A stretch of 64,000 nt of DNA from Vulcanimicrobiota bacterium. GTDB taxonomy: Bacteria; Vulcanimicrobiota; Vulcanimicrobiia; Vulcanimicrobiales; Vulcanimicrobiaceae. The notes beneath the pieces are model-generated. The model was not told the DNA's origin, did not search any database, and worked only from the letters and a program-made list of their open reading frames with translations. Numbering within the stretch: the first letter of the stretch is position 1; every line of letters starts with the position of its first letter. The DNA lies in assembly GCA_963714015.1 (NCBI GenBank), contig OY970223.1, positions 3,040,001-3,104,000 of the forward strand, written 5' to 3'. Positions 2,163-62,186 of the stretch are shown here, piece by piece. The translations under genes and the position numbers were made by a program.

Positions 2163-2989
2163 CCTCGCCGCTCCTTTGCTGCGTCTACCGTTGTAAAGAA
2201 GATGTGCTCCAAGTTCATGGCGCGCCGGTTCACCGTAACCGGAGAAAGCGCGCGCAGCTGCGCCTCGATCTCGGCGACGTCGCCGTTCGCGTAGCGGCGC
2301 TCCAATCGTCCGTCATCGAAAACCGCCTCTACCACAAATCGTCGAGCGCGCAGATCGTCGACGTCGGCCTCGAGCGCAAGCCGGCCGCGGTCGAGAATGG
2401 CAATCCGCTCCGCTGCTTGCTCGACATGTCCGATCTGATGAGATGAAAAGAGAATGGTGACGCCGTCCGCCGCAGCGCTGACGATCGTATCGAGCAGACG
2501 ATACTGGAGTACGGGGTCGAGTCCGGTCGCCGGCTCGTCGAGAATCATGAGTTCCGGCCGTTGCGAAAACGCAAGTGCGAGCGCGACGGCCTGACGCTGA
2601 CCTTTCGAAAGTGCGCGCAACCGCCGTTCCGGTTCGATCTCAAACCGCTCGCTCAAATCCCTCATTAGGTCGCGGTCGAAACGGGAAAAACAGCGGCGCC
2701 GAAACTCGGCGTGCTGCCGCACGGTCATCCAACCGTCGAGGCAGTTGATCTCGGGCACGTAGGCAATGCGGTCGAACATTCGCGGATGGAGCCGCTCGCC
2801 GAAAACTTCGACCTCACCGGACGTTTTCGAAGTCAGACCTAGGACGCACCCGATTGCAGTACTCTTGCCGGCACCGTTACGGCCGAGCAATCCGAGGACA
2901 GTGCCGGGATTGACGTCAAGGGAGAGGTCGTCGACGGCAAGGCGGCCGCCGAAGCGTTTTGTAAGGTGTGCAATGCGTAGTGGAATCAT
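2159..2989 (-). CDS. ABC transporter ATP-binding protein (YtrB-like)
   Basis: Walker A GRNGAGKS, signature LSKGQ, Walker B ILDEP, H-loop SSH. Start placed at MIPLRI, coupled to the GntR stop. Confidence 0.92.
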   Translation of the reverse strand: MIPLRIAHLTKRFGGRLAVDDLSLDVNPGTVLGLLGRNGAGKSTAIGCVLGLTSKTSGEVEVFGERLHPRMFDRIAYVPEINCLDGWMTVRQHAEFRRRCFSRFDRDLMRDLSERFEIEPERRLRALSKGQRQAVALALAFSQRPELMILDEPATGLDPVLQYRLLDTIVSAAADGVTILFSSHQIGHVEQAAERIAILDRGRLALEADVDDLRARRFVVEAVFDDGRLERRYANGDVAEIEAQLRALSPVTVNRRAMNLEHIFFTTVDAAKERRG

Positions 2990-3399
2990 TGTGCTCCGTC
3001 CGTGCCGTTGCCGCGATACCACGCGTCGATCGCGCGTCGAAAAATCGCGTGTACGGCGTTCTCGTCGACCCCCAGCGAAAATGCCTCGCGAATCGTCGCA
3101 TCCATTGCCGCGTCGACGACGTCACGGGCCCCGGTCTTTGCGGCGCCGTCGGCGGCATCGGCTCGAACGTACGCCCCTCGGCCGGGCAGGCTCCGAATGA
3201 TCTCCAGATGCTCGAGCTCCCGCAGCGAGCGAGAAATCGTCGCGGGATTTACAACCAAATCGCTCGCCATCTGCTTAACGGTCGGCAGCTGTTCCCCGGG
3301 CTTCAAAACCCCAATGGCTACCGCGCGCCGGACCTGTTCGACGATCTGAAGGTAAACCGGCAATCCCCTACTCGGGTCGACATGCATATGTAGTGGCAT
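2986..3399 (-). CDS. GntR-family regulator, YtrA subfamily
   Basis: PVYLQIVEQV...LKPGEQLPTVKQMA.DL.VNP.TI...LE...GRGAYV with a short C-terminus, upstream of ABC genes. Confidence 0.92.
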   Translation of the reverse strand: MPLHMHVDPSRGLPVYLQIVEQVRRAVAIGVLKPGEQLPTVKQMASDLVVNPATISRSLRELEHLEIIRSLPGRGAYVRADAADGAAKTGARDVVDAAMDATIREAFSLGVDENAVHAIFRRAIDAWYRGNGTDGAQ

Positions 3400-3413
3400 A
3401 ATTAACTAGGTAA

Positions 3414-3459
3414 TGTACTAGTTAGCTAGTATAATACCGGGCAATTGGTTTGCTGTCAA
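3414..3459 (-). promoter_or_regulatory. Sigma70 promoter with overlapping YtrA-type operator
   Basis: Minus strand TTGACA (3459-3454), 17 bp, TATTAT (3436-3431). Palindrome tgTACTAG-ttag-CTAGTAta at 3414-3433 resembles the YtrA TGTAYTA...TARTACA box. Confidence 0.75.
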
Positions 3460-3513
3460 GCGGCCATCCCCGTCGCGGTCCGCTTAAGGGGTGACCGGGA
3501 CTGCGGGCGGCGC

Positions 3514-4485
3514 CTAACGGGAACTTAGGCCGGAAAGCTCCGCCGTCAGCATGTCCACAACAAGCTGCGGATCTTCGACCTTACCGGTGACGATTGAGTC
3601 AAATGCGGAAACGGCGCGTTCGAAAGCTCGGCGCGCGCGTTTCTCGCCGACGCGGATGGCGATTGGGCGAAGGGCGCGTTCTCTCCACCGCAGGCGCGCC
3701 GGTATTTCGCCGCCTTTGCGCGCGAGTTCCCATAGCAAGCCGCACTCCGTCGCAAGCGCATAGATGAGCGGCACCGCGGCGTTGCGATCGTTGGCGAAAA
3801 GTTCGTGCGCGATGCCTAGCGCTTCACCGACACGCCCTTCCACCAGCGCGCCGGCGTACTGATAAGCCTTGGGATCTTCGATCGTCAGACTCTCTTGCTC
3901 CAGGTCTTTGTACGAAATGCGCCGCCCGCCCAAAGCGAGTTTTTCCAAGTCGTTTCTCACCGATCCCAAGTTTGCTTCGCTGCGTGAAAGCGTGTCGATC
4001 ACGCGCGGTTCGGCGGTTGCTTTGAGTTCGGCTAGGGTCTCCGTGATGAACCGGGTGCGCACGTCTTCGTTGGCGGTCGTATCGATGCGCAGTGCGCCGC
4101 GTCCCGCCATCGCGCCGAACGGCTGCGGCCGCTGTGCGCGCGGCGAAAGCAGATCGCAGATCACCAGGGTGTTGCCTTCAGGAACGCTCTCGGCGACTTC
4201 CCACAATTCCCGGCGCATCGCCGCCTTTAGGCTCTGCGCATCGGTTACGGCAACCACCCGCGAAGCAGCCAAAAACGGCATAGCCTGCACCGCTTCCCGG
4301 ATGCGGCCCGTGTTGTCGATTTGACCGGCCGCGTAACGTTCCAGATTCATGTCGCGCAAATCGGCGGGCAGTATGCGGTCGATCACGGTCTCGAGCGCTC
4401 GATCGGCCAAAGTTCGCTCGGTGCCCTCGATGATGACGAGCTTTCCGATGGCCGGCGATTTTTCAATGAAATCGTAGAACTTCAC
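3514..4485 (-). CDS. holA: DNA polymerase III delta subunit
   Basis: IEGTER.L, DMNLERY, AVQAMPFLAASRVV and NDLEKLAL motifs; 323 aa. Confidence 0.85.
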   Translation of the reverse strand: MKFYDFIEKSPAIGKLVIIEGTERTLADRALETVIDRILPADLRDMNLERYAAGQIDNTGRIREAVQAMPFLAASRVVAVTDAQSLKAAMRRELWEVAESVPEGNTLVICDLLSPRAQRPQPFGAMAGRGALRIDTTANEDVRTRFITETLAELKATAEPRVIDTLSRSEANLGSVRNDLEKLALGGRRISYKDLEQESLTIEDPKAYQYAGALVEGRVGEALGIAHELFANDRNAAVPLIYALATECGLLWELARKGGEIPARLRWRERALRPIAIRVGEKRARRAFERAVSAFDSIVTGKVEDPQLVVDMLTAELSGLSSR

Positions 4486-8611: not shown

Positions 8612-8641
8612 AGCTTACGCCGCGAACTTAACAACTGTCAA
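8612..8641 (-). promoter_or_regulatory. Probable leaderless promoter of ribBA
   Basis: Minus strand TTGACA (8641-8636), 18 bp, TAAGCT (8617-8612), 6 nt, GTG start at 8605; no Shine-Dalgarno. Confidence 0.6.
8631..8638 (+). repeat. Junction repeat 1, ACAACTGT (probable target-site duplication)
   Basis: tta-ACAACTGT-caaggtaacatac; the same 8-mer occurs at 10708, 15243 and 17853. Confidence 0.9.
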
Positions 8642-8690
8642 GGTAACATACTTGGCTCACCAGGGGCCTGGTGTCTGGTAGGATAGAGAG

Positions 8691-8981
8691 ATGGCCCGCG
8701 CTCGCTTCCACGGTTTGCTTGCGGAGATGGAAGACCGACTCGGCGGAAACTACAATTCCGCGCTCCTCGCAGCCATTCTCGCGGTTGCCCCAATGTTCGT
8801 GGTGGCGATGATTCATTCTGCGCTCGCTTGGCGCTGTCTTGAGTCGTTTTGGGTCGCACTAGTTCTAATTTTGCTAGCACGGGTCTTCCGAGTACAAGTT
8901 CGCGTAGCCCTATTGGGTGGTCTTCTCTGGCTTTGCGGTACGCTGGGCAATTTTTGTGCTACCTCCGGTGTCATCGGGTGA
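8691..8981 (+). CDS. Small hydrophobic cargo protein
   Basis: 96 aa with about three TM-like stretches, inside unit A. Confidence 0.45.
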   Translation: MARARFHGLLAEMEDRLGGNYNSALLAAILAVAPMFVVAMIHSALAWRCLESFWVALVLILLARVFRVQVRVALLGGLLWLCGTLGNFCATSGVIG

Positions 8982-9685
8982 AGTGAGTGCCCCTATTCCC
9001 TATCCAACCCCAATGCTGCAAACATGGGACGGAGTTTACTCTGGTTGGGCAACAGAGCGCGGAGCCAAGTTGCCATACTGGGCGGTAAATCTGTGTCTAG
9101 CCAATTTTGGGAATGAAGATGTCAAGGTAGTGACATACGAGACTTCTAAATTAGATTGGAATTATCGCGACGATCCCACGAAAGTGCGGCCGGTAGTGGA
9201 CAAGATGAGGGCGTCACTCGCTGTTCAAGAGGAAAGGGCGGAACACGCCTGGCCCGAGATTTATCATCCCGATGACCCACGATTACTATCCTGTTCGCAA
9301 AGGTTGGGATATTTCAGAAGACATCCGAGACCATTTTACTGGCACGCACTATATTCAGGTACATTCCGATCACGTAGTAGGGCGCGACGAGCAAATGCAA
9401 ATAATGGCTCAGTACAGAATCCTCTACTACGATGTGGATTTTGTAGAAACGAATTCGCGTGGTATGACCACCTGGAACGCTTGCGGAATCGTGGAGTGGC
9501 AAGGCAGTACAACCCCGTGTCCGGAGGCGGGGGTTAAAAAAGTGAACGACGATATTGACGGCGACGAAGCCATGAGGCGGTTTGAAGAACTCGGGACTAA
9601 ATTGTTCCAAATCAAGAAAGACCACGTTGAGGAAATCACTGAGGGGGAACCTGATGACTACTCGAGCCGGAGCCCGGATGAGTAG
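8982..9685 (+). CDS. Hypothetical cargo protein, probably one gene split by a frameshift near 9270
   Basis: Overlapping ORFs 8917..9537 and 9272..9685, each protein-like in complementary halves; visibly lower GC. Confidence 0.4.
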
Positions 9686-10638
9686 TCCGCAGAGCCGCGT
9701 TCTCGTTCTTCAATTCGCGATAGGTTACGCGCCGTCCGTCCGTATTCTTCAGCACGGCCACGAACCGCTCCGCGTCGTTCCCCTCGCGGGCGTTGAAGCG
9801 GAATACTTGCTCGTCAAGGTAGCGGTCTCAGATGGAACGGACGCGGGCAAATGTAGGTCCCTTTAATGGTCCGCTTCAGGCAGCTCCAGAAGTTCTCGAT
9901 ATTGTTCGTATGCACGCTTTCCGTCAACGTACCGAACCGAGTGGTCAACGAACTTATGCAGGTAGCGAATAGTCCAGCATCCGGTAGGAGCGCAGCGCAT
10001 CGGTGAACACTTGGAACCCGGTTCGACGTTCTGATAAATCTTCGGAAGCAGTACCGCGGCGCGATGGTTCGGAACGACCATAGCCTTCACGCGGCTTTTG
10101 CCTTTTTCTTCGGCGCGTTGCACCATGCCGAACACCGTCGTCTTTCCGGTGCCGGTCCGTGTTTGAGTTTGCGGAAGCCGCTCTTGGAAAAGTAGTTCGT
10201 GCGTACCTTACCGCCGACGAATGTTTCGTCCGCTTCAACTGTACCGGAGAACGCCGCGCCAACGCCGTCTTTCATGGATTCGCGGATGCGATGGAACATG
10301 AACCACGCCGTCTTTTGCGTGACACCCAGGGCGCGGTCCAGTTCACACGACGAGGTTCCGTTCTTCGTGTTTGCCAGGAGCCAAATTGCCGGAAGCCACT
10401 TGGTAAACGAAATCGGACTGTCCTCAAAAATCGTCCCAACCTTGACCGAGAACTGCCGTTTGCACTCTTTGCAGCGCCACATTTTGCGAGTCTTGAGGAA
10501 TTGGACGGACGCCGATCCGCAACCCATGCGCGGGCACGCGATGCCGTTCGGCCAGCGCAATTTAACCGCGTATTCGAACGCCCGCTCGGGGTCCGAGAAG
10601 AAGGTGACTGCCTCGATAAGCGTAGTCGGCGTGTCCAT
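9636..10638 (-). CDS. IS1595-family transposase with several frameshifts
   Basis: N-terminal zinc ribbon (RWPNG..CP..GC...WRCKEC), GTIFEDS, LGVTQKTAWFM.HRIR, VEADET, VFTD, HTNNIENFWS.LKR, RYLDE..FRFN. Confidence 0.92.
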
Positions 10639-10707
10639 GCTTTAACGGTATACTCGAGGGTGTTCCACCAGTGTGGCACTGTGAGGTGAGCCAAGTATAT
10701 TAGCTTG

Positions 10708-10715
10708 ACAACTGT
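10708..10715 (+). repeat. Junction repeat 2, ACAACTGT
   Basis: gtatattagcttg-ACAACTGT-caagatgatatacc. Confidence 0.9.
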
Positions 10716-10780
10716 CAAGATGATATACCTATTGCGGCTTTGCCCATTTCCGGCGAGTTGCACAAAGCGCTAAAGCGTGG

Positions 10781-11185
10781 CTATTGGTGCAGTAGCACGA
10801 TGGCAATCACGGCGTAAAGGCTCAGAACGACGCCACCTAGCGGTATCGCGAGTTTAAGACGAGGATTCGCCGGAACACTGGTCACCCGTGGAAAGGCATA
10901 CGCGAAGTAAGCCCACAGCGCAAGGCTAACGAGTGCTAAAGCAAGGCGCTCAGTCCTTCCAAGCACGGTTAGCCTGTGCACTTTCGGTAATCGATCTGAA
11001 GCCCCCAGATCGCCGATCTCGCATTGCCTGCGCCCAACCTCGTCTTGCAAGCGCAGAGAACGCTCGATCGCGGCCGCCAGGTTATCCTCGGCCTCGGTCG
11101 GCGTCGGCCCAAAGGCCACAATCTCGCGACCTGCGCCCTGCCCCCTGGCGTGGTAGCCGCCCGCAACCTGCAGTAGAGTAGCCAT
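10781..11185 (-). CDS. Hypothetical protein; N-terminus weakly HicB-like, hydrophobic C-terminus
   Basis: GGYHARG...IVAFGPTPTEAEDNLAAAI resembles the HicB G.T.EEA..N...AI pattern. Confidence 0.35.
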   Translation of the reverse strand: MATLLQVAGGYHARGQGAGREIVAFGPTPTEAEDNLAAAIERSLRLQDEVGRRQCEIGDLGASDRLPKVHRLTVLGRTERLALALVSLALWAYFAYAFPRVTSVPANPRLKLAIPLGGVVLSLYAVIAIVLLHQ

Positions 11186-11234
11186 GGTCCAAATTATCCC
11201 ACGCCGTAGCGTTACGTGGCAAATAACTTAATGC

Positions 11235-11350
11235 GGCGGGAAGGCGACCACGCGGAGCGGTTCTATACTGTGCTGAAGAACACGGACGGCCATCGCGTTA
11301 TGTATCGCACCTTGAAGGCGGAAAACCCGAACCTGCGTGTTATGCATCCT
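11235..11350 (+). pseudogene. Remnant of an IS1595 transposase C-terminus, inverted relative to unit A
   Basis: REGDHAERFYTVLKNTDGHRVMYRTLKAENPNLRVMHP versus unit A REGNDAERFVAVLKNTDGRRVTYRELKNENAALRTTHP. Confidence 0.85.
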
Positions 11351-11479
11351 CGGATATCTCGCCCGAATCTCGCCCGCGTCGTCCTCGATAATTTCCCGGT
11401 TATCGTCGTTCTTGCGAACGATTTTGCCGAGCAGGGTTTTCGAAGTTCTCCATAGCCTCGTCGCCGTTTACGTCGTCAT

Positions 11480-12314
11480 TCATAGCAAGTCCAACGCTTC
11501 ATCTGCCAGTTTGCCACCAAGGATTGTCGCCCACGCATCTAGCGCTTTCGCCATGGCTTGTACCGTTTTTGACGTTAATATTTGCCCCGCAATTATTTCG
11601 TGTGTTAGGTCCGTACTGCTTAAGCCATATCTTGACATCATATCGGTAACAATTCTTACGACCTTGGGCCTCACCTTGTCAAATTCGGTATTATCCACGG
11701 TAGTGCTCTCGAGCCATTCCTCAATTATTTCGCGCCCCGTCAGCCCTTTACGCTGCGATTTATGCAGCGTCATGTTATTCACGAACGATTCTAACATTGC
11801 AGAGACGCGCTTTATGCGTGTGTAGTCCGAAGCGAGGGGTGCAATGCGCGACCATTTCTCCGCGCTAATCTGCAAGTCGTTAACCCGCCCCACTAATTTG
11901 TCGTTTTCTAGCGATGCCTCTACCCAGCCATCCGATAACGCATCAGCCTCGGCCTTTAGACCCTCAGTTTTCGTACGCTCCTGTCGGACGATGCTCAATG
12001 GTGTCCTGCAATTTACTTTGGACACCGAGTGACTAAACGAATCAGTAGCCTGCGATGCGGTCGCCGACAAGGACAGGTCCTTTACTTGCGCGTCGTGCCA
12101 CCACAGCAATAGGCCGACCATAAGAAAAAGTGGAGATGAAATCTTGGACTTGCGCCACAAAGTGTCCCAGTTCGGTGTGCGCGTTATAATTCAGCGATGC
12201 CTGGACGGCGTTCTCGTGGTCGATTGCGTCCCATATTCTCCAGGCCCAACCCAGACCAGATATGACGAGCGTTGCAATCGTCGGCCTAGACGGACGCCAC
12301 ACTTTAGAGAACAT
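11480..12314 (-). CDS. Hypothetical membrane-anchored cargo protein (frameshifted)
   Basis: ORFs 12042..12314 and 11480..12160 overlap; TM segments followed by a helical region; lower GC. Confidence 0.4.
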
Positions 12315-12409
12315 CCAGATCGTTTGCGCCGTGAGCGCGACTGATCATTTTGTGACCCTCGATGAGACCAAGGCTGGACTGAAAAAAGCGCCCTCCTTAC
12401 CCTATTAGG

Positions 12410-12497
12410 GCATTGGTGCCTCAGGTGGCTTTGCACATCAAAGGGCGGCTGCACATAAAATACGCTGCTTGCACATAAAACCGAGCCGCTGCAATTA
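12410..12497 (+). repeat. Internal transposon-end-like sequence with periodic GCACATAAAA repeats
   Basis: gtgCCTcAGGtGGCTTTGCACA matches the unit B/C ends. GCACAT repeats at 12433, 12451 and 12471; homologous to 17870-17928. Confidence 0.7.
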
Positions 12498-12661
12498 GGA
12501 ACAGTTTATTTCGTCCGTACGCTTGCAAAGCATGGTATATTTGCGCCATGTTGCCGCGACGGTGGTCGCGGGCAGGGAGTAAAGGGCTCCCCACCCGCAT
12601 CCTCCATCGGGGACGGTCGGAAGCTCCAGGGGTTCCGATCTCGCGCTCCAGGAGGAAAACT

Positions 12662-12808
12662 CTACTCCGGTTTTGGCGCACGACGAGGTGTGTTCCAATA
12701 CGGACTTTTGCACTTCGGGCAAACCATCGGGTCCTGCGACTTGTCCCGAGGCAGCCATTCGTGCCCGCATCGGTCGCACCGATAGCCGGACAGTTTCACC
12801 TTCGCCAT
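12662..12808 (-). CDS. 48-aa zinc-ribbon protein (not in the ORF track)
   Basis: Hand translation MAKVKLSGYRCDRCGHEWLPRDKSQDPMVCPKCKSPYWNTPRRAPKPE*; two CxxC motifs; TTGACG-18-TATACT 6 nt before the ATG. Confidence 0.8.
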   Translation of the reverse strand: MAKVKLSGYRCDRCGHEWLPRDKSQDPMVCPKCKSPYWNTPRRAPKPE

Positions 12809-12814
12809 TCCCGT

Positions 12815-12890
12815 AGTATATACCCACTAGTCTCATACCGTCAATATACCCCCTGGTAGGTTGACTCTGCGCTATCCCTTGTGGTATATT
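12815..12890. promoter_or_regulatory. Divergent promoter pair (zinc-ribbon gene and transposase)
   Basis: Minus strand TTGACG (12844-12839), 18 bp, TATACT (12820-12815). Plus strand TTGACT (12861-12866), 18 bp, TATATT (12885-12890) with a TGn extension. Confidence 0.6.
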
Positions 12891-12920
12891 CTCTTTAGGA
12901 ATATACGAAGGGGTACGAAG

Positions 12921-14141
12921 ATGGAAGCACGGGAACAGCGCGGGCTCGAAATCGCAGCCACCAAGAAACTCGAAAAGTCCGGCCAGAAGTGGCTTGTCCC
13001 ATCCTCCACCGGATCGGGCACGTACGTTGTCGATCCCACCGTCTACGGGCCGGCGACCTGCACTTGTCCCGACTACGAGCTGCACCAAGAGCCGTGCAAA
13101 CACGTCTACGCGGTCGAGTTTACGATCCGACGCGAAACGACGGCCAAGGACGGTACCGTGACGACCGAAACGATCACGTACCGCCAGGAATGGGCCGCGT
13201 ACAATGCGGCACAGGGCAATGAGAAGGTCCGCGTTGCGGAGTTGCTTCGCGAACTGTGCGGCGCAATCGACAACCCACTCCAAAAGCGCGGTCGTCCGCG
13301 TCTGCCGCTCTCCGATCGCGATCTTCTGCGCCGTGATGAAGGTTTACGGCGGAATGTCCGCCCGCCGCTCGGCTTTGCGACCTGAACGACTTTGCCGCTC
13401 GCGGCTTCATCGACAAAGCGCCGCACTTCAATTCCGTTCTCAACGCCCTCGAAAATCCCGATGTAACGGCCATCCTCAAGAACATGATTGAGGAAAGCGC
13501 CGCTCCGCTCGTGACGCTGGAAACGGACTTTGCGGCCGATTCCTCCGGCTTCACGCCCACGACCTATGCCCGGTGGTTCGACGCGAAGTACGGGCGCGAA
13601 ATGACCAAGCACCATTGGCTCAAGGCGCATATCACCGTCGGAACCCGCACGAACATCGTTACGGCGGTCGAAGTCACGGACTACAACGTCCACGATTGCC
13701 CCGTACTGCCCGACCTGCTCAACACGACCGCCAAGCGGTTTACGATGGAGCGCGTTTCGGCCGATAAAGGCTACCTGTCCGATGCGAACGTCCGCGCTAT
13801 CCACTCGCACGGCGCGGTCGCCTTCATCCCGCCGAAAGTCCAACAGCCGTTTCGGCCCCATGCCCGACGCAAGCCGCAAGCGTTCCGACGTATGGCACAA
13901 AATGTTCCACTACTACGCTTTCAAGCGCGACGAGTTTCTGCGCCATTACCATCGGCGGAGCAACGTCGAAACGACATTCCACATGATCAAATCCAAGTTC
14001 GGCAGCCGTATCCGCTCGAAAACGCCTATCGCGCAGACGAACGAAGTTCTCGCGAAGGTCCTGTGCCACAACCTGTGCGTACTCGTTCAGTCCGCGTATG
14101 AACTCGGGATCGAATCGACGTTCTGGAAGCAAACGGCGTGA
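12921..14141 (+). CDS. SWIM zinc finger + DDE (IS4/IS5-like) transposase; about 3 frameshifts
   Basis: SWIM motif CTCPD...PCKHVYAV; RGRPRLP; DFAADSSGF; ADKGY; YHRRSNVETTFHMIK.KFG (Y-2-R-3-E-6-K). Confidence 0.9.
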
Positions 14142-14169
14142 CAGGTCTGAGGTCTTTGGAGGTCCCGAC

Positions 14170-15021
14170 ATGATCCCTATAATCCTGGTGCTAGCCATGG
14201 GTAGTACACCAACCGCGGCTTACGATTTGCCAAGGATCGAGCACCGGTACGCTATAGCCGAAGATAATCAGCGCGATCCCCAAACCCGCAACACCGCCGC
14301 CCAACATTCGGCGGCGAGGGAGCAGATCAACACCAACCCACAGGACTGCTCCTCCGCCGACAATCAAAACACAGCACAGTGCGAGGACGCTAAGAATAAC
14401 CAAAGAATCGCTGTCGCAAACGAGCACATGGTTACTCTCACTATTGTTATCGCTGCTGTTGGCGTTATGCAAACGCTTGCTCTCGTTCTTACGTTGGTAG
14501 CCACCCGAAAGGCGGCGAACGCTACGGCTAAGAGCGTTGACCTTTCCGAACGGTCGCTGAAGATCACTGAGCGTGCACACCTTCAGGTGAGCCAGATTGA
14601 GGTGCGGAGCGGCTTGACGAGTGGGAACATCCCCCGGATCGTAGTGTCGATTGCGAACCGAGGAAGGACACCAGGAACTATAGTAAGCAGTGTTTTTAAA
14701 TTTCAAATCTTCGACACAATTCCAGAATCGCCAACCTTTGATGGCGAGACTCCCAATCAGGTTTTGGTTGGTCCTGGGAACACCGAGACGTCCGATATTA
14801 TGACGCAACACGCCGTCACAACGGACGAGATCGAAGCGATAAAGGCTGCGAAAAAGCAGTTGGTCGTCTGGGGCAGAGTGTTCTATCTCGACGTGTTCGG
14901 GGACCGCCACGAAATGCGGTTTGGGTGCGCGATGAAAATGCACGATCATACCCCGGGCACTCAGGACTATAGGGTGACGTTCAAACAGTTGGTTGGTGAA
15001 GATTACAATCGGGCCGACTAA
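14170..15021 (+). CDS. Hypothetical secreted/membrane cargo protein
   Basis: Signal-like N-terminus, a TM segment (IVIAAVGVMQTLALVLTLVA), then a soluble domain (I.N.G.TPG, G.V.Y.DVFG..H). Confidence 0.65.
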   Translation: MIPIILVLAMGSTPTAAYDLPRIEHRYAIAEDNQRDPQTRNTAAQHSAAREQINTNPQDCSSADNQNTAQCEDAKNNQRIAVANEHMVTLTIVIAAVGVMQTLALVLTLVATRKAANATAKSVDLSERSLKITERAHLQVSQIEVRSGLTSGNIPRIVVSIANRGRTPGTIVSSVFKFQIFDTIPESPTFDGETPNQVLVGPGNTETSDIMTQHAVTTDEIEAIKAAKKQLVVWGRVFYLDVFGDRHEMRFGCAMKMHDHTPGTQDYRVTFKQLVGEDYNRAD

Positions 15022-15116
15022 CGCGAGAGCAGGTATTTTTCCGGTATGCTGAACTTGCGAACCGACCGCTCTTGAGCCATGCCCTGCGGTAACGGGTTGA
15101 CGCTCACGGGCTACGG

Positions 15117-15149
15117 AGGGGATCGGGGAATCCGGTCCCCTTTTCGTTT
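15117..15149 (+). terminator. Intrinsic terminator
   Basis: AGGGGATCGG-ggaat-CCGGTCCCCT followed by TTTCGTTT. Confidence 0.7.
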
Positions 15150-15242
15150 GCTGAGAGGCCGCACATAAAATCGGCAGGCTGCACAAAAAACACGCCCCCA
15201 GGAGCAATAAATGTGCAAAGCCGCCTCAGGTATATCATCTTG

Positions 15243-15250
15243 ACAACTGT
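15243..15250 (+). repeat. Junction repeat 3, ACAACTGT
   Basis: ggtatatcatcttg-ACAACTGT-caaggtaccgtacc. Confidence 0.9.
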
Positions 15251-15310
15251 CAAGGTACCGTACCTAAGGCGGCTTTGCACAAAAAGGCACTTTTGGGGCT
15301 GCTTTTATAT

Positions 15311-15567
15311 GTTGAGCAGGTCGGGGAGTACGGGGCAATCGTTGACGTTGTAGTCCGTGACTTCGACCGCCGTAACGATGTTGGTACGGGTTCCGACGTT
15401 AACATGCGCCTTGAGCCAATGGTGTTTGGTCATTTCGCGCCCGTACTTGGCATCGAACCAGCGGGCATACGTCGTGGGCGTGAAGCCGGAAGAATCGGCA
15501 GCGAAGTCTGTTTCCAGGGTCGCGAGCGGAGCGGCGCTTTCCTCAATCATTCTCTTGAGGATGGCCG
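15311..15567 (-). pseudogene. Internal fragment of a SWIM-DDE transposase, inverted relative to unit B
   Basis: AILKRMIEESAAPLATLETDFAADSSGFTPTTYARWFDAKYGREMTKHHWLKAH...DCPVLPDLLN, nearly identical to the protein encoded at ~13468-13723. Confidence 0.9.
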
Positions 15568-15591
15568 AAGTGCGACCAGCGCTGCAGCCAG

Positions 15592-17268
15592 TTACGCGCT
15601 TGGCAGTGTCTGCAATGGTGAAGTCAGCGTAAGCAGCGCGTATGCGCTGCCGGTGCGATACGTGAGAAGTGCAAGCGTTTCGGTCTCTTCCGGCAAGTAA
15701 TGCGTGCGATCGCGCTTGGGACCACAGATGACAAAGCCGATAAGTTCCGCACGCGCGGTCATCGGCAGCAGCAGTGATCCACGCAATGGATGTGCGGGCT
15801 CGTCGCATTCGAACGGTTCGTGCCAACGCCGCAAACGCAGCACTGCAAAATCGTGAGACGGCAGAATGGAAGGTGTGGGGGCGCTTGGCGTCGCGAGCGC
15901 ATACGCCGACCCGTCGGCCGTGTAGATCGCGACGAAGTCGCTCTCGAGGCGTTGACGCAGCGCCTCGTATGTCTGCAACAACAAGTATTTCGGGTCTGAA
16001 ATAAGGTCGGTCTCCTGCGCGAAGCGCCGTAACGCTTGCATCGCCGCCGTTTGCGAACGGAAGATGATTCGGTTGAGGAATCCTTCGATACGGCGATGAG
16101 CATGCGTGAGGACGACGCCGATGAATACCGCGAGCAGCAACTCCGCGGCGAGAGCGAAACGTGACTCTTCGAGCCATCTGCCGAAGCCCCAATCCACCAG
16201 AGCGAGCAGGGCGATCGTGATTGACGTGATGGTACCGTACAACAGTGCGCGGCTGACCACGAATCGGATGTCGAACAAGCGGTGGCGCAGGATCGTGTAG
16301 GCCAAGGCAATCGGCGCGAGCAGCATCCACGCTTGTGCAAGGTTGATATACGAAACTTCCGCGTAAATGCCGAACATGGGCGCGAGAATATTGTCGATGA
16401 CGATCGAGGGTAAAAACGCGACGGCGAAGGACAGCACAACCCAGCGCAGCCGATTACGGCGCGCTTCATCAGCCTGAACGTATCTGGCGATCAAAATCAC
16501 GATGGCGACGACGTAGATGCTGTTGAGCACGGCGCCGTACACCGTCCAATACGCGGTCGGAGCTCGCGCTCCGGAGACCACCAGCACGACCATCGGAATC
16601 AGCAAGGCAAGCCATACCGCGGGCACAAAAAACGCGATGAGCGCACGTTCGAGTAGCGCTCCGGCGCCGCGCGGCGTTGAATCGGGAAACCGCAGCGCGA
16701 ACGAGACAAAGCCAGCTGCCGATGCCGGAAGCGCAATCGACACGATGAGAGTGACGAGATACTGGGCCGCAGGGTATTCGAGAATCAGTGTGCCGACGAG
16801 GCAAAAGTTGTAGAGAAACGCGTAAAAGGCCCACGTGACGGGGCTCGGCCGGAAGAGCACGAGCGCGGCGGCGAGCAAAATGGCCGCCCACAGTGATACT
16901 ACCGCGATATAATCCGTGACGTTGTCGATGGCCGTTCGACCGAACGGATGCGAACGTAATGTCACGAGCCTGCCCGAACTGAGCGGAAGAGTTATAACGG
17001 CTCCGTCGGGTGCACCGGCATCGTAGCCCAGCGTTAGTGAGGCGCGACCGGTGGGGGATAGGCGACGCATGTCGATGACGTCACCGGCCCGCAAGCCTGC
17101 TCTCGATGCTTGCGCATCCACCGAGGTAATGTAACCGTTCTGCCCCGCGCCAAAGCCGTATGTCGAATACGGATGCCAGGGCAGAAGCAGATCTCCGCCG
17201 TTGGCGAGCAGCGAAGCGGCGGTAAGAACGACAATGAAGACAGTCCGGATGACTGCCCGCGTGTCCAT
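15592..17268 (-). CDS. Multi-TM protein with PDZ-like N-terminal region and C-terminal GAF-like domain
   Basis: ASRAGLRAGDVID, about 9 TM segments, LAYTILRHRLFDI, LLPMTARAELIGFVICG...EE...L; paralogous to 46088-47855. Confidence 0.75.
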   Translation of the reverse strand: MDTRAVIRTVFIVVLTAASLLANGGDLLLPWHPYSTYGFGAGQNGYITSVDAQASRAGLRAGDVIDMRRLSPTGRASLTLGYDAGAPDGAVITLPLSSGRLVTLRSHPFGRTAIDNVTDYIAVVSLWAAILLAAALVLFRPSPVTWAFYAFLYNFCLVGTLILEYPAAQYLVTLIVSIALPASAAGFVSFALRFPDSTPRGAGALLERALIAFFVPAVWLALLIPMVVLVVSGARAPTAYWTVYGAVLNSIYVVAIVILIARYVQADEARRNRLRWVVLSFAVAFLPSIVIDNILAPMFGIYAEVSYINLAQAWMLLAPIALAYTILRHRLFDIRFVVSRALLYGTITSITIALLALVDWGFGRWLEESRFALAAELLLAVFIGVVLTHAHRRIEGFLNRIIFRSQTAAMQALRRFAQETDLISDPKYLLLQTYEALRQRLESDFVAIYTADGSAYALATPSAPTPSILPSHDFAVLRLRRWHEPFECDEPAHPLRGSLLLPMTARAELIGFVICGPKRDRTHYLPEETETLALLTYRTGSAYALLTLTSPLQTLPSA

Positions 17269-17339
17269 CCTCGCAGAACTTCGTGCTCCGACATACCTTC
17301 CCCGCTGCGCAGGAATCGCGCTTTCCGCAACGTCGCCGG

Positions 17340-17790
17340 CGCGAGAGTAGAGCGATACGCACGGGGCGATCGTCGGCGATATTCCCAACACGCCGGGCGT
17401 GCACGGCATCGCACTTGCACCCGAACTCGGCAAGGGCTTTACGTCGAACGGTTCCGACGGCGCGGTAACGGTGTTCGATTTGAATTCGCTCAAACCCATG
17501 ACGACGATTCAAACGGGTGCCAAGGGGCCGGACGGCATCGTGTACGACCCCGCCAATAAGCGCGTGCTGACGTTCAACGGCGAGAGCAACGACGCGACCG
17601 CCAGCGACGCGCAAAACGACCGCGTCGTGGCGACGATTCCGCTTGGCGGACGACCGGAGTTTCCTGTCGCGGACGGCAAAGGCATGGTGTACGACAACAT
17701 CGAGAGCACGAGCGAAATCGTCGCGATTGACACGTCGAGCGCGGCAATCGTCGATCGCCGGAGTTTGGGAAGTTGCCAAAGCCTGTCGGG
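17340..17790 (+). pseudogene. Fragment of a YncE/YVTN-like beta-propeller gene
   Basis: GDIPNTPGVHGIALAPELGKGFTSNG...GPDGIVYDPANKRV...GRPEFPVADGKG; lacks the N- and C-terminal parts. Confidence 0.75.
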
Positions 17791-17852
17791 CAAACCCATT
17801 CGAGGCCTCGCCTTGGCAGCCTCGGTCAAGGTGAGTCAGGTATATCACCCCG

Positions 17853-17860
17853 ACAACTGT
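17853..17860 (+). repeat. Junction repeat 4, ACAACTGT
   Basis: ggtatatcaccccg-ACAACTGT-caaagtggccgtacc. Confidence 0.85.
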
Positions 17861-17930
17861 CAAAGTGGCCGTACCTGAGGGGCTTGCACATGAATCGACG
17901 CTTGCAATAAAATCGAGCCGCCGCAATGAA
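17861..17930 (+). mobile_element. Array unit D: degenerate B-type left end; right boundary not found
   Basis: CAAAGTGGCCGTACCTGAGGGGCTTGCACA, then cttgcaataaaatcgagccgccgcaat, matching cttgcacataaaaccgagccgctgcaat at 12468-12495. Confidence 0.65.
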
Positions 17931-17976
17931 GGCGAGAATGCCACCCGTGTGGCGCCGTTCCGAGTAGTATTTTCCC

Positions 17977-61586: not shown

Positions 61587-62186
61587 TGGGGTTCTCGCTT
61601 ACACGGCTCCTACGCGAACCCGCTCCGCAGATACGCTTGCAGTGTGAGATGTGCGCCCTGCCGATCGCCGAAGGGCACGGTCATGTCGTCGACACGTCCG
61701 ATCGGCGGCTGCTATGCACGTGCTACGCGTGCAGCCTTGCTGTTCGTCGGGTCCGGCACTGCGCGCGGACGGTTCAAAGGCGTTCCGAAACGCTACGCCG
61801 CGATTCCGGCGCCGTTATTCAGCGAGGCGCAATGGGAGGCGCTGGGCATTCCAATCGGGCTGGCGTTTTTCTTTGAGAACGGTCAAAGCGGCCATGTCGC
61901 GGCCTTCTACCCCGGTCCCGCCGGTTCTACCGAATCGCAACTGCCGCTCGATGCGTGGACCGAGCTGCGCGAGCGCGAACCGCTGATCGCGCAGATGGAG
62001 CACGACGTCGAAGCGGTGCTCGTTTACCGCCCGCGCGGCGGGCCGGCGCAGTCATACCTGGTGCCGATCGACGCATGCTACGAGCTCGCCGGAATCGTCC
62101 GATCGAAATGGACGGGGATCCACGGCGGCGACGAGCTCCATCAGGCGATCGAACAGTTTTTCGCGCGGATTGCGGAGCGAACCTAA
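61583..62186 (+). CDS. DUF5947-like hydrogenase accessory protein (frameshift near 61740)
   Basis: CEMC...H.H...LLCTCYAC, IPIGLAFF, YPGPAG.TES.L, PIDACYEL.G. Confidence 0.8.

Follow-up and report, generated by a model that had tools for sequence, protein, structure and literature searches.

Two insertion sequence (IS) transposases of unrelated families lie side by side in the genome of a Vulcanimicrobiota bacterium (assembly GCA_963714015.1, contig OY970223.1), within units whose ends look alike. Why do they meet at one chromosomal site, and is the terminal motif really common to both? The question arose from a sequence-only reading of a stretch of 64,000 nucleotides (positions 3,040,001 to 3,104,000 of the contig; the window, counted from its first letter). 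This reading had described an IS1595 unit (unit A) and a unit with a SWIM plus DDE transposase (unit B), and had suspected one outer signal behind both. The window was compared with loci (L-numbers) and genomes (G-numbers) of relatives. The best explanation is, with high probability, a nested array of IS1595 elements (element a) at a native palindrome, plus a separate element with a SWIM-type transposase (element b) that lands 23 nt away. Going by the genome comparison, the system is a site-specific IS1595 subgroup plus an offset-targeting SWIM/IS5-like element.

An IS1595 array at one palindrome

The region from 8.6 to 17.9 kb of the window is an IS pile-up at one chromosomal site. Three units (a1, a2, a3) form a tandem array in which all units are separated by the same 8 bp, ACAACTGT (Table 1), and the junctions consist of a reverse-complemented arm, the core CTTG-ACAACTGT-CAAG and a second arm. 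Arms of type a read CAAGnTrATATACyTG followed by GCTCACC or ACTCACC; arms of type b have the same first ~20 nt, then GGCTTTGCACA and then GCnGCACATAAAA repeats. At 12427 there is a b-like half end that lacks the outer part. All transposase genes of the window are broken. The octamer is the centre (ACAnnTGT) of a 16-bp palindrome, CTTnACAnnTGTCAAG, of the form CTTnACA-nn-TGTCAAG, which precedes by ~30 nt the start of a conserved gene that fuses a helix-turn-helix (HTH) domain to ribBA. A search with the junction core TTGACAACTGTCAA (≤2 mismatches) yielded seven matches in the window versus 0.15 expected. Six of them represent four junctions (8628, 10705, 15240, 17850), two being palindromic and counted on both strands, and the seventh, at 61873, is an unrelated outlier. 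The fourth junction (17830-17890) had been overlooked in the sequence-only reading. Across the genome (3.56 Mb searched) the pattern CAAGnTnAnATAC occurs four times, every time at the borders of units A and B, and the inner end motifs have close matches at this array only, with looser ones elsewhere lacking a junction context. An extra junction-core match at genome position 2,212,368 lies within unrelated sequence and was dismissed as chance.

Comparison of static genomes indicates that a elements insert in the central octamer ACAnnTGT and duplicate those 8 bp. Twelve complete a-type elements, i.e., with both inverted repeats, were found: a1 of the window (2069 bp), an element of 850 bp (L125), one of 50 bp (L047) and nine of 2.0-3.0 kb (L037, L039, L042, L045, L046, L051, L052, L053, L126). 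The 8-bp flanks were identical in all twelve; nine comparisons were tabulated by script and three made by eye (L039, L125, L126). Two octamers depart from the consensus, TCAGTTGT in L051 and ACGGTTGT in L053, and the departure is present in both flanking copies, thus a 2-bp duplication is ruled out and 8 bp fits. Duplication models of 2, 5, 9, 12 and 16 bp did not agree with these octamers and the symmetric ends; 8 bp alone did. An 8-bp duplication is the norm of the IS1595 family according to the accessible part of PMC12561309. Transposases of intact relatives (328-350 aa) scored 178-181 bits with NCBIfam NF033547 (IS1595, cutoff 75), 114-123 bits with PF12762 (ISXO2-like DDE) and 38-47 bits with PF12760 (zinc ribbon). 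The zinc ribbon of the a1 transposase in the window reached 47.6 bits and its DDE fragment stayed under the cutoff. The inverted repeats have a length of 23-26 nt, and the a1 pair is identical at 24 of 26 positions. Judged by transposase domains, inverted repeats and 8-bp duplication together, element a is an IS1595 element. An IS1595 transposase adjoins the site in 11 of 21 loci, in either direction. A search for the repeat core GATATAYYTGRNNCACC that made no use of the palindrome gave 15 matches in 13 of 201 genomes; 13 of these matches are at precisely the a-type distance from an octamer resembling ACAnnTGT. The passenger open reading frames (ORFs) of a-type elements are dissimilar from one genome to another.

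The tips of a1 read CAAG...CTTG, and an insertion therefore rebuilds the palindrome at the borders. A tip of this kind restores the split sequence, so that harm to the gene is avoidable, and each insertion creates a fresh target. With CAAG at both tips the far junction is again a full palindrome, which would lead to tandem arrays; tandem copies are found in the window, L037, L051 and L032. The array might also have been assembled from cassettes by site-specific recombination, through an integron-like system or a serine recombinase acting at a 2-bp crossover, with the palindromic junctions as recombination sites and the transposases as cargo. The asymmetric centre AC, common to all junctions and in the same direction, would suit such a recombinase, as would the length of the junction palindromes (arms of 34 nt at the third junction, J3, 82 % complementary). 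However, the repeated flank has 8 bp and not 2, and it copies non-consensus native bases; the units possess inverted repeats of 23-26 nt and transposases of a family in which an 8-bp duplication is normal; and none of the 23 ORFs scanned at the window locus (6.8-20.6 kb) contained a recombinase domain. A cassette array, whether built by a serine or a tyrosine recombinase, is thus very improbable.

Element b and the apparent common ends

Element b ends in GGCTTTGC(A/C)CA and contains subterminal repeats of the GCCCATAAAA type. Its catalytic domain, DDE_Tnp_1, scored 59-62 bits with PF01609. In the NCBIfam models b stayed under every IS-family cutoff, the best score being 78.7 bits with IS5_2 versus 140, for a query without the C-terminus; the IS1182, ISNCY, IS982 and IS4 models scored far below their cutoffs. 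All five b elements with both ends are flanked by 9-bp duplications: the window element and those of L040 (ACCTGAGGC; SWIM + DDE gene with 73 % and 67 % identity), L036 (ATCTGACTC), L058/L102/L119 (G373; a 318-bp copy in a native spacer, GTTGGCATG) and L117/L121 (ATGTCAAGG). The duplicated 9-mers have no common consensus. The b element of G191 in L040 includes a 344-aa passenger ORF with a P63C domain (2780-3814, minus strand), and the reading of its transposase is broken at two masked bases. Near-duplicate 9-mers without an intervening element were seen in G253 (CCTATTGC twice, L049 ~505-540) and in G401 (CTGACGC repeated, upstream in L057); in sequence these look like leftover b duplications or excision scars. 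A search for GGCTTTGCMCAYNAA in 121 genomes gave 22 matches, of which ~15 were judged real by their subterminal repeats; one match, in the unpublished genome G212, was left out.

In ten genomes a b end lies 23 nt after the T of TGTCAAG. The spacer is a-type or a-like in the window (four times), G202, G191, G210, G157, G331 and G122, and it is an unrelated native sequence in G373, G043 and G113. G059, with another unrelated native spacer, has its b end at 24 nt, and G253 at 32 nt, i.e., 23 plus a near-duplicate 9-mer. Element b prefers to land with its end 23 nt from this T. A target preference of b for the IS1595 inverted repeat itself (such as ACCTGAGGC), with the shared locus as by-product, could account for the many b ends in a-type or a-like spacers and for L038, where a b end interrupts an a-type right repeat at the position also seen in the window. 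The same geometry in the four native spacers unlike an a-type repeat, of which that of G373 has a proven 9-bp duplication, and the missing consensus of the duplicated 9-mers make such a preference unlikely. The clustering could also result from mere tolerance, if insertion were wide and survival confined to this intergenic gap; the distance from HTH-ribBA to the next conserved block indeed varies from ~0.6 to 12.5 kb among relatives and is ~11.6 kb here. Tolerance cannot yield base-exact positions, neither one octamer for twelve of twelve a elements nor 23 nt in ten genomes for b, and we give it hardly any credit.

The distance of b also resolves the apparent common ends. The sequence-only reading had quoted the ends correctly, with CAAGGTAACATACTTGGCTCACC (8639-8661) and CAAGCTAATATACTTGGCTCACC (reverse complement of 10685-10707) for unit A, and CAAGATGATATACCTATTGCGGCTTTGCCCA (10716-10746) and CAAGATGATATACCTGAGGCGGCTTTGCACA (reverse complement of 15212-15242) for unit B. 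The outer likeness between both end types was reproduced as well, over ~20 nt (CAAGnTrATATACyTGr) and not 15. Excision of b from unit B joins GGT-GCCTCAGGT-ATATCATCTTG, an a-type right repeat of the AGGCACC variant; the restored repeat, GGTGCCTCAGGTATATCATCTTG, equals this variant in L042, L044 and L045. Since unit B also contains an IS1595 transposase remnant (11213-11401), it is to be seen as a decayed IS1595 element (a2) invaded by b. The SWIM element sits as a passenger within unit B and has ends of its own near 12410, the very case that the sequence-only reading had named as speaking against its proposal. Beside an a-type tip, the 23-nt landing point of b falls inside the a-type inverted repeat, thus the ends of unit B are composite, with 20 nt from an IS1595 repeat and a b end adjoining them, which produces the semblance of a shared outer motif. 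The outer motif (CAAGATGATATAC) is, by this comparison, the outer part of the IS1595-type inverted repeat.

The proposal of a common signal held that both elements end at CAAG and that the outer ~15 nt are read by two transposases or a shared factor. The motif does flank the IS1595 unit and the SWIM-transposase unit alike, in inverted orientation, and the same arrangement recurs in G202, G191, G210 and G157. Yet the own repeats of b and its 9-bp duplications (12418-12426, 15223-15231) lie inside the motif, unit B harbours the IS1595 remnant, b keeps its 23 or 24 nt with unrelated spacers, and at other loci and in other genomes b has the same ends without the motif. A common signal is most unlikely on these grounds, and the claim of one terminal motif for two transposase families was abandoned for an element with its own ends and a 9-bp duplication. 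The idea that the families share one target held up and became more precise: the palindrome CTTnACAnnTGTCAAG is the same for both, but the offsets differ, with the centre used by IS1595 and a point 23 nt away by the SWIM element. For annotation, shared ends between families need a check for nesting first.

Table 1. Features of the array and its left flank (positions in the window)
Feature	Position	Strand or frame	Basis or remark
HTH_3 + RibBA fusion gene, 477 aa	7172..8605	-	Pfam HTH_3, DHBP_synthase, GTP_cyclohydro2; NCBIfam PRK09311, 626 bits
Junction 1, CTTA-ACAACTGT-CAAG	8627..8642	.	native left half of palindrome + octamer copy 1 (8631-8638) + a1 tip
a1, IS1595-family element, 2069 bp	8639..10707	-	inverted repeats 8639-8661 and 10685-10707
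a1 passenger ORFs	8691-9685		
a1 transposase, broken	10638 to 9639	two frames plus stops	tblastn with intact relatives; zinc ribbon 47.6 bits
Octamer copy 2, ACAACTGT	10708..10715	.	
a2, decayed IS1595-type element (unit B)	10716..15242	+	
a2 left repeat	10716-10735		interrupted by lone b end
Lone b-type end (GGCTTTGCCCATTTCC...)	10736..10790	+	23 nt past T of TGTCAAG; inner limit approximate; no partner end found
IS1595 transposase C-terminus remnant in a2	11213..11401	+	tblastn with intact relatives; inverted repeat with a1
a2 right repeat	12415-12426 and 15223-15242		halves split by b element
b 9-bp duplication, left copy GCCTCAGGT	12418..12426	.	
b element, 2796 bp	12427..15222	+	terminal repeats GGCTTTGCACAT, 12/12; subterminal GCnGCACATAAAA repeats
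b terminal repeats GGCTTTGCACAT	12427-12438 and 15211-15222		
b small ORF, 49 aa, zinc-ribbon-like, two CxxC pairs	12660-12809	-	upstream of b transposase; no Pfam match
SWIM + DDE_Tnp_1 transposase pseudogene of b	12897-14138	four frame segments	
b ORF	14098-15021		
b 9-bp duplication, right copy GCCTCAGGT	15223..15231	.	
Octamer copy 3, ACAACTGT	15243..15250	.	
Third unit (a3), rearranged	15251..17852	.	left arm CAAGGTACCGTACCTAAGGC, then b end from 15271
Third unit: inverted part of b transposase, 258 nt	15310-15567		92 % alike; b transposase fragment also delimited as 15314-15568
Third unit: 635-aa membrane protein	15592-17499	-	host paralogue
Third unit: beta-propeller-like gene fragment	17399-17791	+	
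Third unit: good a-type right repeat	17830-17852		
Octamer copy 4, ACAACTGT	17853..17860	.	
CAAA + 16-nt spacer, then degenerate b left end	17861..17935	+	b end from 17881, with subterminal repeats

The 635-aa membrane protein of the third unit had no Pfam or NCBIfam match and has >20 paralogues in the genome, the best of them (48 % identical) at genome position 1.18 Mb. The beta-propeller fragment has a counterpart at genome position 19.6 kb (71 % identity), and the start of the 635-aa ORF, which overlaps the fragment, also matches there. The resemblance suggests that fragment and ORF start are a segmental copy trapped in the array.

The native palindrome and its host gene

This genome has three occurrences of the palindrome TTnACAnnTGTnAA, none of them outside the array; five shuffles gave 0-1 occurrences. 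The 19-mer TGTCAAGNTRATATACYTG (≤1 mismatch) was looked for in 401 genomes of the phylum. Of the 296 further members of the same family, 32 contained it; of the 104 genomes from the other families covered, one did, with a coding-like chance match that has no adjoining palindrome. Matches per genome were mostly one or two, and control matches amounted to three in total. Of 30 fetched loci, 24 have the beginning of this HTH-RibBA gene as their left flank. The fusion was found in 59 of 61 family genomes, or 53 of 55 when six unpublished genomes, all matching, are left out. The upstream region was attempted in 25 published relatives and obtained from 24 (contig L070 begins at the gene); CTTnACAnnTGTCAA(G/C) with ≤1 mismatch stands ~28-32 nt before the start codon in 22 of these 24. 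Sites free of elements include L071, L072, L076 and L082. Given the native palindrome in relatives (Eremiobacterota, Baltobacteraceae), TGTCAAG is host sequence, and what follows TGTCAAG in the window is not. In the four element-free loci named, a second palindrome, ATACTTGAAACGnnCGTTTCAAGTAT, comes directly after the target, followed by the start of a divergent TetR-type-like regulator gene; neither this TetR-type operator nor the divergent regulator gene is present in the genome studied here. In L128, from a genome of the same genus (G206), the right half is TGTGAAG rather than TGTCAAG, and after it comes GCGGCAAAGCCGCGGCAAAGG, similar to inverted fragments of a b end.

The fusion, conserved in the family (window gene and left flanks of L007-L035), joins ~65 residues of an XRE-type HTH domain in frame with RibBA, a bifunctional enzyme of riboflavin synthesis. 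Since the unique palindrome overlaps the likely promoter, HTH-RibBA may act as an autorepressor, and the palindrome would probably be the operator of the fused HTH domain. On the gene strand, TTGACA of the palindrome lies 16-18 nt before a TAnnnT that stands 5-9 nt before the start codon; this conserved spacing makes a leaderless ribBA promoter likely, with TTGACA in the palindrome as its -35 box. Divergent sigma-70 promoters at the junctions were rejected as candidates, since TATAC is too close, at 13 nt, and a promoter scan was empty.

The promoter bears on the tips of element a. The gene-proximal tip is CAAG in twelve of twelve elements, and it would be so because TTGACA is thereby restored. 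The far tip varies, with CAAG (3), GGGG (6), CCGG (2), CATG (1) and CAGG (1); a lone a-type right repeat at the fourth junction (J4) of the window, outside the twelve, has CGGG. In-place inversion through recombination between repeats is described as a process in the accessible text of PMC3004938. It may be the reason why the far tip is independent of the transposase direction, and at a guess the combination of GGGG far and CAAG near reflects selection for the -35 box plus in-place inversion.

What both elements recognise would be the palindrome itself or a protein that occupies it, and a common factor that reads the palindrome is conceivable. A speculative and rather unlikely extension is that HTH-RibBA, sitting on its own operator palindrome, is the landing pad for two unrelated transposases, with insertion at the dyad for IS1595 and 23 bp to one side for the SWIM element. 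If true, a host transcription factor would guide IS targeting to a safe site, and the IS1595 tip would have evolved to rebuild the -35 box and the operator. The landing pad would also explain the convergence of two families with unlike ends on a single unique site, and the constant distance of b irrespective of the spacer.

Several observations weigh against an array built by site-specific a elements and an offset b element. The evidence consists of static genomes, mostly metagenome bins, and transposition is deduced rather than observed. Two of the GATATAYYTGRNNCACC matches (L092, L095) lie away from any palindrome, and a search around them found no partner repeat, so that they do not define the true tips. 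The far tip of a elements is often GGGG (L042, L045, L046, L047, L052, L126), regardless of the direction of the transposase gene. The left arm of the third unit is poor as an a-type repeat, and the content of this unit resembles rearranged host DNA. Element b is not strictly site-specific; about half of its real ends are elsewhere (L103, L109, L112, L117/L121, L118, L120). Finally, a scan for consensus sigma-70 promoters between 8400 and 8900 found none, and the -10 candidate TAAGCT matches 3/6 positions, thus the promoter reading is drawn from conservation.

Range of the array and comparison with known systems

Among 185,579 species genomes, 22 records contained the junction pattern ACANNTGTCAAGRTGATATAYYTG. 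Twenty-one of these are labelled Eremiobacterota, WPS-2, Vulcanimicrobiota or Baltobacteraceae, and one 5.8-kb contig is labelled Acidoferrum. Several metagenome contigs (G240, G213, G362, G053, G296) begin or end within ~200 nt of junctions. The array seems to break assemblies, and occupancy counts are thus lower bounds. Element a represents an IS1595 subgroup that is bound to a single 16-bp palindrome, unique in the genome, where the promoter region of an essential gene lies. Together, elements a and b lend themselves to the question of how a DDE transposase of one protein chooses its site, and they might be developed into compact tools for site-specific insertion.

For transposases that combine SWIM and DDE_Tnp_1, the Atlas lists the pair in 19 of 30 feature matches, with the top three clusters at 0.95-0.98; b has the same domain pair but falls below all NCBIfam IS-family cutoffs. 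IS1595 elements are taken to insert widely. A report of a site-specific IS1595 was not found in the literature searched by title, subscription papers being mostly beyond reach. Element a resembles members of this family such as ISApl4 in the zinc ribbon plus ISXO2-like DDE domain, the inverted repeats, the 8-bp duplication and, in some cases, passenger genes. ISApl4 is dispersed, with 39 copies and A/T-rich duplications in the accessible part of PMC12561309, whereas a elements occupy one unique 16-bp palindrome per genome, usually at a single locus, and their gene-proximal tip rebuilds the palindrome.

IS30 uses nearly palindromic hot-spot targets and inserts beside its own inverted repeats, as stated in the accessible part of PMC9333248. 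The preference for a symmetric target and the creation of abutted end-to-end junctions and tandem copies are common to IS30 and element a. IS30 differs in its transposase family, in its 2-bp duplications (8 bp in a elements) and in the use of circles or dimers; no circle junction was seen here, and no search was aimed at one. Tn7 inserts at attTn7, one safe chromosomal site beside an essential gene, at a fixed distance from the recognised sequence. A single safe site by an essential gene is found here as well, and b keeps a fixed distance whatever the sequence at the insertion point. In contrast to Tn7, elements a and b have a single transposase, occur in both orientations and give no sign of target immunity, tandem copies being common. 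TnsABCD-like genes were absent among the ORFs of the a and b elements, which comprise a single transposase and unrelated passengers only. IS elements aimed at repetitive extragenic palindromic (REP) sequences, which exist in hundreds of copies, are described in the accessible text of PMC1525189. They share with the present array the insertion at a host palindrome; REPs are many, whereas the palindrome upstream of HTH-ribBA is unique in its genome.

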